Source: Klebsiella pneumoniae (GTDB lineage: Bacteria; Pseudomonadota; Gammaproteobacteria; Ga0077536). From it: a stretch of DNA of 64,000 nucleotides. This document shows positions 20,501-29,500 of the stretch, in pieces. Each line of letters begins with the position of its first letter. Positions within the stretch are counted from its first letter, which is position 1. Position numbers: made by a program. The DNA lies in assembly GCA_945861225.1 (NCBI GenBank), contig CAMATU010000001.1:10418-74417 (forward strand). Reading direction: 5' to 3'.

Positions 20501-23500
20501 AGGAAGGTCGCCACGCCGGCTGAGGCGAGACCGGCATCGTAGTGGAATTCGGCCAGCAAATGAGACAGCGCGGCTAACCGCAACGCGGTGAAATCATGCC
20601 GCAACGCGGGCTCAGCCTGGGCCAGGGTCCGGCGATAGGCCTGGAGCTCGAGCATGCTGTAGCGTGCTGCGATACGTGGCGCATGCTGGATAATCCAGGC
20701 GTATTGAATTTCCTCGGCGCGGAGCAGCACTGGGCCCGCGTCCCATAAGGTGTCATCCAGGTCCAATGTCACGAGTTCGATCACGAAGTTATCCAGTCGC
20801 AGCAGAGACGCCAGCATAGCGCAGGCGGCGAGCAGAGAAGGTTACAATGTCACGCCGCACAAATCTGGAGAGGCGCCGATGCCGTCGTTCGATATCGTGT
20901 CCGAAGTAAACCTGCATGAGCTTACCAATGCAGTGGATCAGGCCAAGCGGGAAATCGACAACCGTTTCGACTTCAAAGGCACGGGCACGAAAATTGAGCA
21001 AAAAGAACATGTGATGACCATCACCGCGCAGACTGAGTTTCAGGTCAAACAGGTGCTGGAGATTCTGCGCATGAAAATAGCGAAACGCAGTATCGATGTG
21101 AGCTGCCTGGAGCAGGGCCCCCTCAGCGCGGCACTCAATGAAGCGCGCCAAACGCTGACCGCCAAGCACGGCATCGACAAAGAAGTCGGAAAGAAGGTGG
21201 TCAAGTTCATCAAAGAAGGTGGCGCGAAAGTCCAGGCACAGATCCAGGACGAGCAGGTACGGGTGACTGGCAAAAAGCGCGACGATCTGCAGGAAGTCAT
21301 CGCTGCGCTGCGCGGGGCTGATCTGGGTATGCCCCTGCAGTTCAGTAATTTCCGCGATTGACCGGGCATGTCAGGCGTCCAGGAGCATTTCTACGCCTGT
21401 CCGTACTGCGGAGAGACGATCTCCAGTCTGCTTGATTTATCGGAAACGGCGCAGCGCTATATCGAAGATTGTGAGGTCTGTTGTCGACCTATTGAAATCG
21501 CGTTCGCGGTCACTGCTAACGGAGATCTGCAATCTTTTTCTGCGCAGGATCTCGAGTCTTGATGGCGGACGCCTTAATTCTGTTACTCATCCTTGGGCTG
21601 GTGTTGGCGCTCTGGCATTGGAGTGTCCTGGGGCGTGAAAGGGTGCTCGCCATCAGTGGCGAAATTTGCCGCGATCTGAACATGCAGCGTCTGGATGATT
21701 CGGTGGCGTTACATGCCCTGCGCCTGGTCCGCGCCCCGCAGTTCGCGCTGGAGCGGCGCTACGCGTTTGAGTTCAGCACTGATGGGAGTGATCGTCGGCG
21801 CGGCGAGGTGGTGCTGCTGGGCTTCGCCCTGCAGCTCGCACGGCTGGAACTGCCGGATGGACCGTTACTGATTGAGATTGGTGGGCGTGGGGCTTCTTGA
21901 GCCCGGTACTTGCCGGATTTAGACTTATCGCGAAAACCAAAGGCCGCGACCTTCCCCGCTGTCGTTGCGAGGAGCGCAGGGACGGATAAAAACACTCATC
22001 GGCATTGCTGTACTGCCCAGCGCAGTCGCCACTCGAGTTACCCCGTCATTCCAGAAACCGCACAGCGGTTATCTGGAATCCATGTGGCCTCTCAAGCGCC
22101 CCTGGATTCCAGCTTTCGCTGGAATGACGGTAGGTTATGTATGGTGCGCGAATAGCGACTTTACGCACGCTTGACTCGAGTCTTGGAGCGAGTTCGAGGT
22201 GACTCTGTTTAGTCAATCATCGCGCAGACGCGCCGCTAATTCCTCGATCAATGATTGATCGTGGGCCTTGGCGGCAGTGCGCGCTAATTGGGCGCGCTGC
22301 TTGATGCGCTCCAGATGGGTTTTCTGATTGGCGAACATCTGGCGCGATAACTGATCACCCGTTTGTTCTTCCTGATCGCGTAACCACGCTTCAATTTCTT
22401 CCTCAAAACGCCCGCGCGTGACGGCTTCTTCGTGCCGGTTATGCTCCAGGTTCTGCTGATTGCGTGCCGCTGCCGCCTGGACGCGCTGGCGAGCTTCTTC
22501 GGCGGCCGCTGCATTGGCGCGTGCGGCGCTGACTTCCGCTTCAATGCTCGCGACATCCGCCGCGAGCTGAGCCTCGCGATCGGTGCGCGCCGAGCTGTCG
22601 CGCGCGCGCGCTTCGGCGGCTTCCTGCAACTGCTGCTCCAGGCGCTGTTGAATTGTCGCCGCCTGCTCTTGTGAGCGCTGAGCTTCGGCCAACGCCGCGC
22701 GCAATTCGCCGGCTTCACTCTCCAGCCTGGCGCGTTCGACGCGCAGTTTTTCTTCTTCATGTTCGCGCATTTGTGCGTGCGCGAGTTTGTATTCCTGGAT
22801 AATCCGCTCTGCTTCATCCGCCGCTGCCGCGCGGGCGGTCTCGGCGGTCGCTTTGTCGCGTCGCGCGCGTTCAAGTTCCTCGGCGTTACGCGCGAATTCG
22901 GCTTCGAGCTTACGCCGCTCCCCATCGACTTTGGTTTGAATCTCGTCGCGCAGCTTGCGTTCAAGCTCCAGCTGCCGCACCTGGCGTGCTTCAGCCTCAC
23001 GCGCACTGATCACGCGCGCTTCTTCGACTTCGACTTGCATGCGTTTCGCTTCGGCCAGGCGTTTTTTCGCTTCGTCAGACGCTAACTTAAGGTGTTCACG
23101 TTCGGCCACCAGCTGTTGTTCCGCCTCTTCCTTCATGCTTTGCAGGCGCGCGAGCTCTTCGGCCTGCCAGGCATAACTTTCTTCAAGTTTTTTCTCTTCT
23201 TCGCGTAAGCGCCGTTCGGCCTCGGTACGCATCTGCTGGATGCGTTCTTCTTCCAGGCGCTGGCGTTCGCTGGCCTCCTCTTCGGCGCGTCGCTTTTCTT
23301 CCTCGATTTGCGATTTCAGGCGCTGCGCCTCTTCCCAGGTGCGCTGGGCGCGCGCGGCTTCCTCGGTGAGCCGAGCCTGCTCCTCTGCCATCCGCAAGGT
23401 CGCGGCCTGTTCCATCGCGAAACGCGCTGCCTCGGCTTCTTCACGCAGTCGTTGGGCAGCTTCAATCTGGACATTGGCTGCTTGGATGTCGGCCTGCGAT

Positions 23501-26500: not shown

Positions 26501-29500
26501 GTTTGCTGCCGCTTTTGGCCTCGATTAGGCGTAGAATTCCACACCTCATGGCGGGGCCGTTTCGGCCTCACGCAAGCGATTGAGGTCAGGGTGACAGACG
26601 GCGAAAAAAAATCGCGCGAGCGCCGCTTATACGAGCTGCAAGTCGAGCACCGGGACCTTGACGAAGTCGTGACCCGCCTGGTGGGGTCAGTGCAGATTGA
26701 CGAACTCCTGGTCAAGCGCCTGAAGAAACGTAAGCTACAACTGAAGGATCAGATAGCGAAGCTGAAGAGCGCGTTAATCCCCGACCTTGACGCATAACGC
26801 TGCACGGACGCTCGCCGACTAACTATGACCGAGGAACAGAACCCCTTTCGTGAACGCCTGGGCCTGCTCGTGCCCCTCAACAATCTCCAAGCCAAACAGC
26901 AGGAACAACTGCTTGCCTCGGCCGAGATTCTGACTTTCCGCAAGAAAGATGCGGTTTTCCACCAGGGCGACCGCGATACCTTCGCCTTCTACTTACTTGC
27001 CGGTGAGCTCGAAATGTGGTCCGGCGATCAGTTGATTAAGAAAGTCGTCGGCGGCCACGCTGCTTCTTTCCACCCCCTCGCCCAACTCCAGCCGCGCCAG
27101 ATGTCCGCCCGGGCCTTGGGTAACGCGCAGGTATTGCGGCTGGACCGCAATCTGCTTGACCGCCTGCTGAGCGTCGGCAAGGAAGAGCCCGCCCCCTACC
27201 TGGATAACAATATTGAGGTTGAGGAATACGAAACCGTCGGCACCCTCGACTGGTTGGCCAGCATGTTGCGTTCGGAGCTTTTCGCGCGCATTCCCCCGTC
27301 CAATATCCAGCGCCTGATCGACATCCTGGAAACAGTGCCGGTTAAAGCCGGGGATGAAGTCATTAAACAAGGCGGTGTGGGCGATTTCTACTACGTGATT
27401 CAGGGCGGCCGTTGCGAGGTTTGCCGGGCTACCCGACTGGGCAAGGAAGTTCGGCTCGCCGAATTGGGACCTGGTGAGACGTTTGGCGAAGAAGCCCTGG
27501 TCTCTAACGCAAAACGCAATGCCACGGTGCGCATGTTGACCGACGGTACGCTCGGACGCATGACTCAGGCGCATTTCATCGAGCTAATTCGCGAGCCGGT
27601 GTTGAAGCGTGTGAGCTTGCCGGAGGCCATCGCGCTAGTGGCCGCCGGTGCACGTTGGCTCGATGTGCGGTTTCCGGAAGAGCACCGCGCCAACGGTATC
27701 CCTGGCAGCCTTAATCTGCCACTCAGTTTTCTGCGCTCACGGATGAAGGATTTGCCAATTTCCGCACGCTACGTTGCGTATTGCGACAGTGGCGGCCGTA
27801 GTTCAGCGGCGGCGTTTTTGTTGGCGCAAGCGGGATATGACGTGTGTTTTGTGGCGCACGGCGCCATCGACGAACTGGGTAAGCCAGCGCAGGCGCCCAG
27901 CCAGGAAGCCGCCCAAGTACTGACCCCTATCGCCACTGTAGAGATCTCATCAATCGCTGAACTGCCACCGACCCCGGCGGAGGTGCTGGTGGATGCGGAA
28001 GTACGCGCGCAAGCGTTGGCGGCCGAAGTGGCGAAAGCACGGCTCCAGATCGAGCAGGCGCAGCGGCTGATGGCAGAGGCCGCTGCCGCCAAAGCTGAAG
28101 TGGAACAAATTGTTCAGCAGCGTATGCAAAGTGAACGCACGCGCGTGGAGCAAGACGCAATTTTAGTGCGGGCTCGACTCGAGGAGGCTCAAAAATTAAA
28201 GCAAGTTCTCGAAGCTCAGCATGCCGCGGCGAGCGCGGAAGCGGCGCGACAACGTGCTGCACAAGAGGTGCGTGCCCAGGACTTACAGCAGGCGATCGAA
28301 CGTACCTTGGCTGAAAAGGAACAGCGACTGGAAGAGGTCTACCGCAAGCAAGCCGCTCAGCTCGAACAACTGCATACCGAACATGCCAAGGCGCGTAAAA
28401 CCTTGGACGACACCTGGCAACAGATTGAGCTGGAGTCCTCGATGAGCAAGGAGCGGCTCGCGGCCGCGGTACGCCTCGAACAGGAACTGGCGGCGCGCGA
28501 GGAGGCGCGGGTGGCTAGCCTGGCAGCGCGCGAACAGGCACTCAGGGAGTCTTTAAAGATAGAGCTCGCGCGGGAGCGGCAACGGTTCGAAGCTGAATTT
28601 GCCACCTTCGCGACCGAGATTTCGCAGGCTCGCCAAGCCCAAGCCGATGCCGAGGCTGCCAAAGCAGGCGCTGCTGAAGAGGCCCGCCGAATTATTCTCG
28701 AATATCAAGTTGCGCAGCAGCGGCAATTTGCGGCCATGCAGGACACGCTGGAGGCCGAACGTGTCGCACTTACTGCCGAAGCAGATCGTTTGCGACAGGA
28801 GATGGCCCAGGCGCAGGCTTCGCGTGAGACCGCCGATTCGGCGCGGCGCGCGATCGAAGAGGAATTGCAGACGCTACGCCAGCGGCAATTGACCAGTGCG
28901 CAAACCGAAGCGCATCTGCGTTCCGCAATCGGCACTTTGGAAGACCGTGCAGTCAGCGCCGCACAGGATCTTGCCGCCGCCATTGCAACGGCGACGGCGA
29001 CCGCCGATCGGCAACGCGAGAATGCCGCGCAGCTCGAACGAACTTACACCGCGGACAATGGCATTGGTCAAAAGGTACGCCAGGAGCTCGATGAATGGGT
29101 CGCCGAACAGGAGCGCTTTCAAAACTCCACGGCCCAGCGCGAGGAACTCTCGCGGCGTATGGCAGTGGCCACCAGAATCAAAGCGCGCGCAAATGCGGCC
29201 AGGGAAGCCTCCGAGCAACGTGAGTTTTCTTTGCTCGATGAAATTGCCGGGCGGCTAGGGGTGGAGCTGTAAAGGAGAAAATTCTCCAGTCGACCCGTAC
29301 GTAGGAGCGGCTTTAGGCGCGATAGGACGGTTCGTACGGCACGGGTGTTCGAGATATCTATCGCGCCTAAAGGCGCTCCTACAAAAAAAGAAATTTATAG
29401 GGCGGATAAGCCCGCAGGGCGTCATCCGCCGACAAGCGTCTGTATCAAAAATTCCGCAGCTGTTCAGCGAAAAACGAATCGATAATTCGGCGCGCCTTGG

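Follow-up and report, generated by a model that had tools for sequence, protein, structure and literature searches.

What do two very long, divergently transcribed genes on a gammaproteobacterial contig encode, and what might their products sense and do? The genes, here called p1 and p2, lie in a stretch of 64,000 nucleotides (positions 10,418 to 74,417, forward strand, of contig CAMATU010000001.1, assembly GCA_945861225.1, deposited as Klebsiella pneumoniae and placed by GTDB in the lineage Ga0077536), hereafter the window, whose own numbering is used throughout. The initial annotation had described them as giant paralogues with two cyclic-nucleotide-binding (CNB) domains, a rhodanese domain and a hyper-repetitive coiled coil, accompanied by a small DUF465 gene. 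We find that p1 and p2 belong to a real, widespread and uncharacterised protein family, in which a canonical nucleotide site and a rhodanese cysteine are invariant. The locus comprises three genes:

22213..26136, minus strand: p1, 1307 aa, with the order CNB-A, CNB-B, rhodanese, linker, array of 43-aa repeats and conserved C-terminal tail; intact open reading frame (ORF)
26825..29272, plus strand: p2, 815 aa, with a sensor module (residues 1-350), a disordered linker (353-388) and a helical tail (385-811)
26591..26797, plus strand: DUF465 (YdcH-like) gene, 68 aa, GTG start, co-oriented with p2 and 27 nt (not 25 nt, as first annotated) upstream of it

Both long ORFs lie where the initial annotation had placed them, and the arrangement is divergent as described, with a shared region of 688 rather than 690 bp. 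Paralogy is borne out by the alignment: the first 483 aa are 46% identical and the last 439 aa 34%, the C-terminal tail of p1 being 34% identical to p2 residues 390-811. ORFs of this kind could be artefacts, namely low-complexity frames, assembly chimeras or decaying genes. The p1 tail is indeed strongly biased in composition (~75% Ala, Glu, Arg, Gln and Leu), and the tails of several metagenomic homologues are frameshifted. However, the window ORFs are intact, p1 (1307 aa) and p2 are called identically by an independent gene prediction on the source 124-kb metagenome contig, and the p2 sequence is unchanged in three independent assemblies. Orthologues of matching length occur in at least 10 independent metagenome-assembled genomes (MAGs), those of p1 measuring 1254-1353 aa in the compared loci L001-L006 and L014. 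In addition, the DNA repeats are too diverged for assembly collapse, and the tail holds conserved motif islands. An artefactual origin, with a practically negligible chance, is refuted. A further ORF that overlaps the p1 start (26133-26549, minus strand, 138 aa) was not accepted as a gene: it is conserved in the nearest relative only, at an identity below that of the flanks, is elsewhere broken by indels and is absent from the gene calls of the source contig.

The N-terminal module shared by the two proteins consists of three domains, which in p1 are located as follows:

25777..26079, minus strand: CNB-A, approximately residues 20-120; non-canonical site, in which the Gly-Glu of the phosphate-binding cassette is replaced and the motif LSQLQPRQLSARA is kept
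25360..25713, minus strand: CNB-B, approximately residues 142-259; canonical site (FGEEALVSDAKRNATV), with an invariant Asp141-Trp142 before it and a conserved Cys196 within
25087..25353, minus strand: rhodanese, approximately residues 262-350; catalytic loop C321-D-T-G-S-R326, directly after the CNB-B C-helix

The Pfam model cNMP_binding (PF00027) matches two stretches in each protein, with 105.3 bits for p1 and 99.9 bits for p2 against a cut-off of 27.5 (E-values of 1.7e-30 and 7.9e-29, respectively); the best stretch of p1, residues 171-256, is CNB-B. The rhodanese model (PF00581) gives 40.1 bits for p1 (E 5e-10) and 39.5 bits for p2 (E 8e-10) against a cut-off of 22.2, so that both domain types proposed initially score above the curated cut-offs in both proteins. 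Residue conservation was computed over 102 modules and is given in p1 numbering. In the CNB-B cassette (FGEEAL...RNATV), residues G221, E222, R231, N232 and A233 are invariant. CNB-B thus carries the Gly-Glu and Arg-x-Ala-Thr/Ser elements of a phosphate-binding cassette, of which CNB-A retains Pro-Arg...Ser-Ala alone. Pfam and this invariance together uphold the earlier description of the second domain as canonical. The first domain had been called degenerate; it is non-canonical, but not simply degenerate, since its altered motif, LAQLQPRQxSARA, is near-invariant (P93, R94 and A98 at ~100%). Asp141-Trp142 is likewise conserved at ~100%, and C196 is found in 96 of the 102 modules. AlphaFold2 models the module with a predicted local distance difference test (pLDDT) score of 87 in p1 and ~96 in p2, the CNB-A beta-barrel exceeding 90; disorder in this region is limited to the acidic linker between the CNB domains and the stretch after the rhodanese. 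When compared to the PDB with Foldseek, all top 50 hits are tandem CNB structures of the PKA/PKG type (E ~1e-20), and no match was found outside the CNB part of the protein.

The catalytic loops of the rhodanese domains, C321-DTGS-R326 in p1 and C320-DSGG-R325 in p2, are of the six-residue CX4R type and not of the Cdc25 CX5R type, and the intact catalytic cysteine noticed earlier is thus seen in both paralogues. C321, D322, R326 and S327 are invariant. No named rhodanese equivalog (GlpE, PspE, ThiI domain, MoeB/MoeZ) is reached, the best NCBIfam scores being 18-33 bits against cut-offs of 70-647; the weak matches of the p1 domain are to PspE, GlpE and ThiI. In the AlphaFold2 models, the CNB-B C-helix (residues 248-259) leads without a linker into the rhodanese, which starts at about residue 262. 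The rhodanese thus occupies the usual place of a CNB-controlled effector, and the models suggest that CNB-B may be coupled to it allosterically. The joint invariance of the CNB-B cassette and the rhodanese loop agrees with both the ligand site and the cysteine being functional.

Behind the module, the two proteins differ mainly in length. The following parts of the tail are distinguished:

23218..24828, minus strand: p1 repeat array, residues 437-973, ~11-13 diverged 43-residue units with the consensus NRQLEEAQRLKEEAEAARAELEQEAAARLAAEQARLAAEAERA
22216..23211, minus strand: p1 C-terminal tail, residues 976-1307, common to p2 and all tailed members
28568..28717, plus strand: most conserved tail island, p2 residues 582-631, consensus ERRxLEAEFARxAExLExARRExxAAEAARxAAxEEAERIIAEYK

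Autocorrelation of the p1 tail has its maximum at lag 43, with ~34% identity at this lag over residues 480-880, whereas no periodicity is detectable by the same method in the p2 tail. By an iterated repeat hidden Markov model (HMM), p1 has 11 units (residues 437-968) and p2 has 1-2; close orthologues of p1 carry 10-14, L015 five and L017 one. The repeat array reported initially is thus present in p1, with a period of 43 and not 42 aa, but p2, with its 1-2 units, has no array. The accompanying claim that the length difference between the paralogues is one of copy number holds, both by the unit counts and because p1 residues 490-870 have no match in p2. At the DNA level, Tandem Repeats Finder detects no tandem array across the p1 repeats, and the units share only ~34% identity; the term hyper-repetitive is therefore overstated, and the array is not hypervariable. 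Indeed, p1 orthologues that are 80-94% identical vary by merely one to four units. The repeat units are old as well as diverged.

The p1 tail holds just seven Pro or Gly in 887 residues and has a hydrophobic periodicity of 3.58 (= 43/12). In the AlphaFold2 model of p2, the tail forms five long helices of 40-147 residues, with the best confidence (~90) at residues 640-740. Conservation in a 54-sequence alignment is clustered in islands, the strongest being that at p2 residues 582-631, and the same islands are visible in marine relatives with 45% module identity (distant members P0052 and L030). At E-values up to 5, no Pfam model matches the tail, and the p2 tail has no PDB sequence match. An exhaustive phmmer search with the last 332 residues of p1 returned 120 cluster representatives (50% identity) at E<=1e-3. 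All matches longer than 690 aa carry the N-terminal module, and those without it are short fragments, which marks the tail as a family-specific extension. From their composition and conservation, such tails would be expected to dimerise as coiled coils and to dock through the islands.

How widespread is this architecture? Searching with the 358-aa N-terminal module brings up thousands of proteins, of which nearly all come from uncultured Gammaproteobacteria; database names for the homologues are all generic (e.g. 'cyclic nucleotide-binding domain-containing protein'), and the named ones all derive from MAGs. A scan of metagenome contigs yielded at least 600 candidate stretches, and 584 among those listed encode relatives. 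Bare modules of 350-360 aa are the majority of 80 retrieved relatives, and even the shortest relatives include the rhodanese. Since most family members are thus ~350-aa bare modules, the rhodanese is the sole candidate output domain in those. The initial view that the domain combination was unrecognised is correct in that no named or characterised family covers it, but the module is not rare: it is very common in metagenomic Gammaproteobacteria, mostly in tail-less form. Fusions of CNB and rhodanese domains in bacteria were already listed, as a mention only, in a census of 2007 (Kannan et al. 2007, PMC2246266). Literature searches found no study of any CNB-rhodanese protein, nor any describing the coiled-coil tail and its conserved islands.

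In a neighbour-joining tree, built with no support values, p1 and p2 form two old clades within a superclade of tailed proteins. Lengths are steady in the p2 clade (757-833 aa) and climb from 852 to 1353 aa in the p1 clade. The two genes stand side by side in at least seven distinct lineages. The module also heads larger proteins of 1383-1842 aa, in which a long coiled coil is followed by a C-terminal FGE-sulfatase (SUMF1-like) domain:

L032, 9998-14836: FGE-sulfatase relative
L033, 9947-15475: FGE-sulfatase relative, with an additional PP2C phosphatase domain after the rhodanese
L036, 9980-14200: FGE-sulfatase relative
L038, 9974-14125: FGE-sulfatase relative

Two further observations concern the family. 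A 684-aa relative in L077 (950-3004) apparently contains two complete sensor modules in tandem, as read from its sequence alone, the second copy having its own DWMT, FGEEAL...RNAT and CDSGRRSS motifs. Tailed members in three distant loci, some of them marine, are immediately followed on the same strand by a Fae-like gene (PF08714, formaldehyde-activating enzyme family), of which the window has none:

L008, 3519-4067: Fae-like gene
L009, 7995-8603: Fae-like gene
L031, 5696-6244: Fae-like gene

The regulation of p1 offers a separate line of evidence on the signal involved. Three elements were found in the spacer between p1 and the DUF465 gene:

26249..26264, strand not applicable: CRP/Vfr-like site 1, TGTGATAGTGATCACG, one mismatch to TGTGAN6TCACA, centred ~60.5 bp upstream of the predicted p1 transcription start
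26351..26366, strand not applicable: CRP-like site 2, TGTAAGCCCGGTCACA, one mismatch; TGTGAC half-site kept in 6/7 loci
26203..26212, minus strand: predicted -10 region of p1, conserved TTGCTTTAAT block

The block AATGCGTGAnCnCTATCACAAA of site 1 is conserved in all seven aligned loci, and its flanks diverge. The TTGCTTTAAT block, which we read as a putative -10 promoter element, is also present in all seven (identical in five, with a first-base change in L006 and in L003/L005). It lies 40 nt from site 1 towards p1, and a start predicted from its conserved TTTAAT would put the centre of the site at about -60.5, as in class I CRP promoters (near -61.5). Sites with at most one mismatch to TGTGA-N6-TCACA number three in the window versus 1.06 expected by chance, and two of them fall within the 454-bp p1-DUF465 spacer. 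A near-consensus CRP site occurs within 300 bp upstream of 12/12 genes of the p1 clade, compared with 1/60 tail-less genes and 0.9% of random windows. Paired CRP-like sites upstream of p1 are also found in L015, L017 and L021; in L017, where the genes are arranged in tandem, they precede p1 and not DUF465-p2. The CRP encoded in the window (5040-5711) scores 309 bits against an NCBIfam equivalog cut-off of 266. Site conservation, the 12/12 occurrence and the promoter geometry together indicate that p1 is very probably a member of the CRP regulon, as predicted from these sites.

Other features of the spacer were noted as well. It has no Rfam match. Right where the p1 mRNA is predicted to start lies a GC-rich hairpin followed by a T-run (26177-26197, minus strand). 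Its stem persists in L001 and L002 despite base changes, and the hairpin might stabilise the mRNA or act as an attenuator. As a leader RNA, the hairpin had marginal support in a wider alignment (-3.6 kcal/mol, covariation 0.43), and we do not claim it. The spacer also has two conserved promoter-like hexamers. TATAAT (26431-26436) reads towards p1, ~290 nt upstream of its ATG, and TAGAAT (26533-26538) reads towards DUF465, ~55 nt upstream of the GTG. The former would be a second, distal promoter of p1, with CRP-like site 2 downstream of it.

Among known systems, the regulatory subunits of PKA and PKG come closest to the module, top-ranking both by sequence and, within the PDB, by structure. They share with it two consecutive CNB beta-barrels and a canonical G-E...R-x-A-T cassette in the second domain, and the invariant Trp at the start of that domain resembles the capping Trp of RI-alpha. 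Unlike them, p1 and p2 have no kinase partner, inhibitor sequence or docking/dimerisation domain. They also differ in the missing Gly-Glu of the first site and in the rhodanese and bacterial coiled-coil tail that follow the CNB domains, and the identity is only ~20%. CbpA (PA4704) of Pseudomonas aeruginosa, the subject of work by Endoh and Engel (2009), is reported to be a polar cyclic AMP (cAMP)-binding protein regulated by Vfr, small and composed of two CNB domains only (degenerate, then functional), with neither rhodanese nor coiled coil. It is reportedly a non-transcriptional cAMP receptor whose gene is under CRP/Vfr control, which parallels the CRP-like sites of p1. In contrast to such a small two-CNB protein, p1 and p2 add a rhodanese and tails of 425-887 aa.

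With GlpE, PspE, the C-terminal domain of ThiI and the rhodanese of CoA-disulfide reductase, the rhodanese domain shares the fold family and a C-x-x-G-x-R loop followed by Ser/Thr (weak NCBIfam and PDB sequence matches). Unlike single-domain rhodaneses, it sits after a nucleotide sensor, and its scores of 28-33 bits do not approach the equivalog cut-offs of 102-126. Direct succession of a CNB domain and an effector is also seen in bacterial fusions such as Bd1971 (CNB-EAL), the mycobacterial Pat (CNB-acetyltransferase) and CNB-gated channels, and p1 and p2 weakly match the CNB parts of Pat and Bd1971. The tails resemble crescentin, FilP, Scy, FimV and HubP in having hundreds of residues of uninterrupted helix, a charged Ala-rich composition and internal repeats, but they show no sequence or profile similarity to these proteins, and the periodicity of the p1 tail is 3.58 versus 3.5. 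The possibility that the pair are FimV relatives had been raised; no FimV/HubP-type model matched. There is no LysM or FimV C-terminal domain among the Pfam and NCBIfam hits at E<=0.01, and neither sequence contains a hydrophobic (transmembrane) segment.

We tentatively favour the explanation that p1 and p2 are non-transcriptional cytoplasmic cyclic-nucleotide receptors whose ligand is most likely cAMP and whose output is the rhodanese cysteine on a coiled-coil scaffold, p1 being also induced by cAMP-CRP; among the readings considered this one has the best prospects, although we would not call it probable. The suggestion of the initial annotation, a cAMP/cGMP-gated sulfurtransferase scaffold, is a reasonable hypothesis. 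The identity of the ligand, the allosteric coupling, the sulfur-transfer chemistry, the oligomerisation of the coiled coil, the scaffold role and the activation by CRP are what we infer from the comparisons given above. Under the favoured explanation, the tandem CNB unit, similar to a PKA regulatory subunit, would sense the nucleotide at its canonical second site. Because the CNB-B C-helix (lid) runs straight into the rhodanese, binding should reposition or unmask the latter. The invariant C321 would then act as a persulfide carrier or a thiol switch, possibly with Cys196 of CNB-B as a partner. The near-unbroken helical tail would dimerise as a coiled coil, and its conserved C-terminal islands would anchor it, either on partners or at a fixed cellular position. 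The sensor would thereby be displayed on a rod, ~60 nm long in p2 and ~130 nm in p1 if fully extended. The greater length of p1 would have arisen through amplification of the 43-residue unit from 1-2 to ~11 copies. Activation of p1 by cAMP-CRP from a class-I-type promoter would create a feed-forward logic, with DUF465 and p2 as a separate two-gene unit.

Several points weigh against this explanation. Directly behind the cassette arginine stands an Asn that never varies, whereas PKA has Ala there and cGMP sites typically have Thr/Ser, which leaves cAMP the likeliest candidate rather than a firm assignment. The explanation gives no role to the conserved, altered pocket of CNB-A. The orientation of the domains in the AlphaFold2 models is uncertain (predicted template modelling scores of 0.57 and 0.38), and the tail periodicity of 3.58 departs from that of the canonical heptad, 3.5. 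Comparison of gene neighbourhoods revealed no sulfur-metabolism partner or acceptor gene conserved beside any clade. Finally, in the relatives that carry FGE-sulfatase or PP2C domains, the rhodanese may not be the final output.

The lack, in every clade, of a linked gene for a sulfur pathway or an acceptor would be expected if p1 and p2 were cAMP-dependent scaffolds or localisation factors without enzymatic output. The rhodanese cysteine would then be an input, sensing sulfane sulfur or oxidants and modulating nucleotide binding or docking, and cAMP and thiol-redox signals would converge on the proteins at a fixed place in the cell. In favour of this, the two conserved cysteines C196 and C321 might act together as a redox switch, the conserved islands of the tail look suited to docking, and the succession of degenerate and canonical CNB domains together with CRP/Vfr-type regulation resembles what is reported for CbpA. 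However, the full loop signature C-D-x-G-x-R-S is invariant in the 102 modules, which is more typical of active sulfurtransferases. Moreover, most relatives are tail-less, so that scaffolding cannot be the ancestral function. We consider this account doubtful, although it is the main competitor of the favoured one. The tails, with 425 and 887 residues of near-continuous helix, could also be those of filament-forming cytoskeletal proteins rich in coiled coil, like crescentin, FilP and Scy, with the module regulating assembly and p1 and p2 co-assembling, possibly with DUF465. The conserved C-terminal 330 aa common to paralogues that are neighbours in at least seven distinct lineages, and the presence of DUF465 in every locus of the clade, are in line with this idea. 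On the other hand, p2 is gone from four lineages that keep p1 and DUF465, which makes obligate co-assembly unlikely, the tail shows no similarity to any known cytoskeletal family, and the equivalent coiled coils in relatives are spacers before C-terminal enzyme domains. Filament formation thus appears quite improbable.

The rival that touches the ligand itself is that CNB-B binds cGMP or another nucleotide, and that the altered pocket of CNB-A could accommodate a second, different ligand. The residue following the cassette arginine contributes to the discrimination between cAMP and cGMP in PKA and PKG, and this is the position of the invariant Asn232. CNB-A retains Pro-Arg and Ser/Thr-Ala, and the invariant Trp142 stands, by analogy, at the place of the capping Trp260 of PKA RI-alpha. 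Against a ligand other than cAMP speak the bona fide cAMP-CRP encoded in the genome, the conserved CRP sites of p1, which point to a cAMP regulon, and the absence from CNB-A of the Gly-Glu pair that contacts the ribose; we regard it as unlikely. The favoured receptor explanation can also be extended to a fuller version, which is unlikely as a whole: a cAMP-induced, cAMP-binding persulfide carrier or thiol switch on a rod of 43-residue modules (~60-130 nm) would couple cAMP to sulfane-sulfur or redox chemistry at a set distance from a docking site, with the altered CNB-A binding a second ligand and the module being reused both stand-alone and at the head of the FGE-sulfatase and PP2C giants.

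The most constant neighbour within the clade is DUF465. Its product matches PF04325 with E 3.4e-14 (53 bits versus a cut-off of 25), and it is below the cut-off of the NCBIfam YdcH equivalog (24 versus 91 bits). All 12 loci of the p1/p2 clade have the gene, and those with a p2 have it immediately upstream of p2; a clade-specific HMM found none near other family members. In L002, L006, L014 and L016, p2 is missing and DUF465 and p1 are retained; p2 has been lost independently in several lineages. A 30-aa remnant of the p2 C-terminus is seen in L002 (3251-3340). The association noticed initially therefore holds in the p1/p2 clade but does not extend to the wider family, and DUF465 outlasts the loss of p2. 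The searched literature contains no reported function for DUF465.

The genes for PilZ, YajQ (20879-21361) and CRP are also where the initial annotation had located them, and two further gene features are relevant here:

29445-29912, minus strand: PilZ gene, 155 aa, with intact RxxxR (RNYPR) and NxSxxG (NLSPEG) c-di-GMP-binding motifs, convergent to p2
21559-21900, plus strand: DUF3301 gene, between yajQ and the p1 3' end

The second-messenger genes of the neighbourhood are thus present, but PilZ and YajQ are convergent to the family genes. The window PilZ is conserved beside p2 or DUF465 across the clade, and YajQ and DUF3301 are convergent to a p1-type gene in 7/22 de-duplicated tailed loci, marine ones included; in the distant L008, L026 and L031, too, this yajQ-DUF3301 pair is found convergent to a family member. 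Since PilZ, YajQ and DUF3301 are not co-oriented with the family gene, they represent synteny and not operon partners. Tail-less relatives are convergent to a pilZ-holB-tmk cluster, and their conserved neighbours are housekeeping genes (pilZ-holB-tmk, a FadB-like enzyme, an exonuclease-family protein), with none for sulfur metabolism. A relationship between the window PilZ and that of the tail-less clade was considered and dropped: BLASTP gives E 0.43, and the shared PilZ neighbour is probably a coincidence. As for yajQ, its longest ORF (GTG at 20750; extension 20750-20878) shares 68 nt with the divergent HAD phosphatase gene, and the profile match begins at residue 44-45, so that the true start is probably the ATG at 20879. 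Farther along, at 31131-33207 (plus strand) and just past a Sel1-repeat gene, an AAA+ ATPase gene is followed by a CoxE-like gene with a VWA domain, resembling a chaperone pair of the MoxR/VWA type; the pair is present on the source contig too.

In most bacteria, cAMP is thought to act almost solely through CRP, and non-transcriptional cAMP effectors are few. The family of p1 and p2 is abundant in environmental Gammaproteobacteria and combines an invariant nucleotide site with an invariant rhodanese cysteine, and its p1 clade falls in the predicted CRP regulon. On an otherwise constant protein, the tail varies naturally in rod length between 1 and 14 units of 43 residues, a range that could be used to test length against function, and the stand-alone relatives of 350 aa are simple targets for biochemistry. 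If the nucleotide does control the rhodanese, carbon and energy signalling would be linked to sulfur trafficking or to the thiol redox state, a connection with cAMP that, to our knowledge, has not been described so far. The family may thus represent a new route by which cAMP acts in bacteria without a change in transcription.

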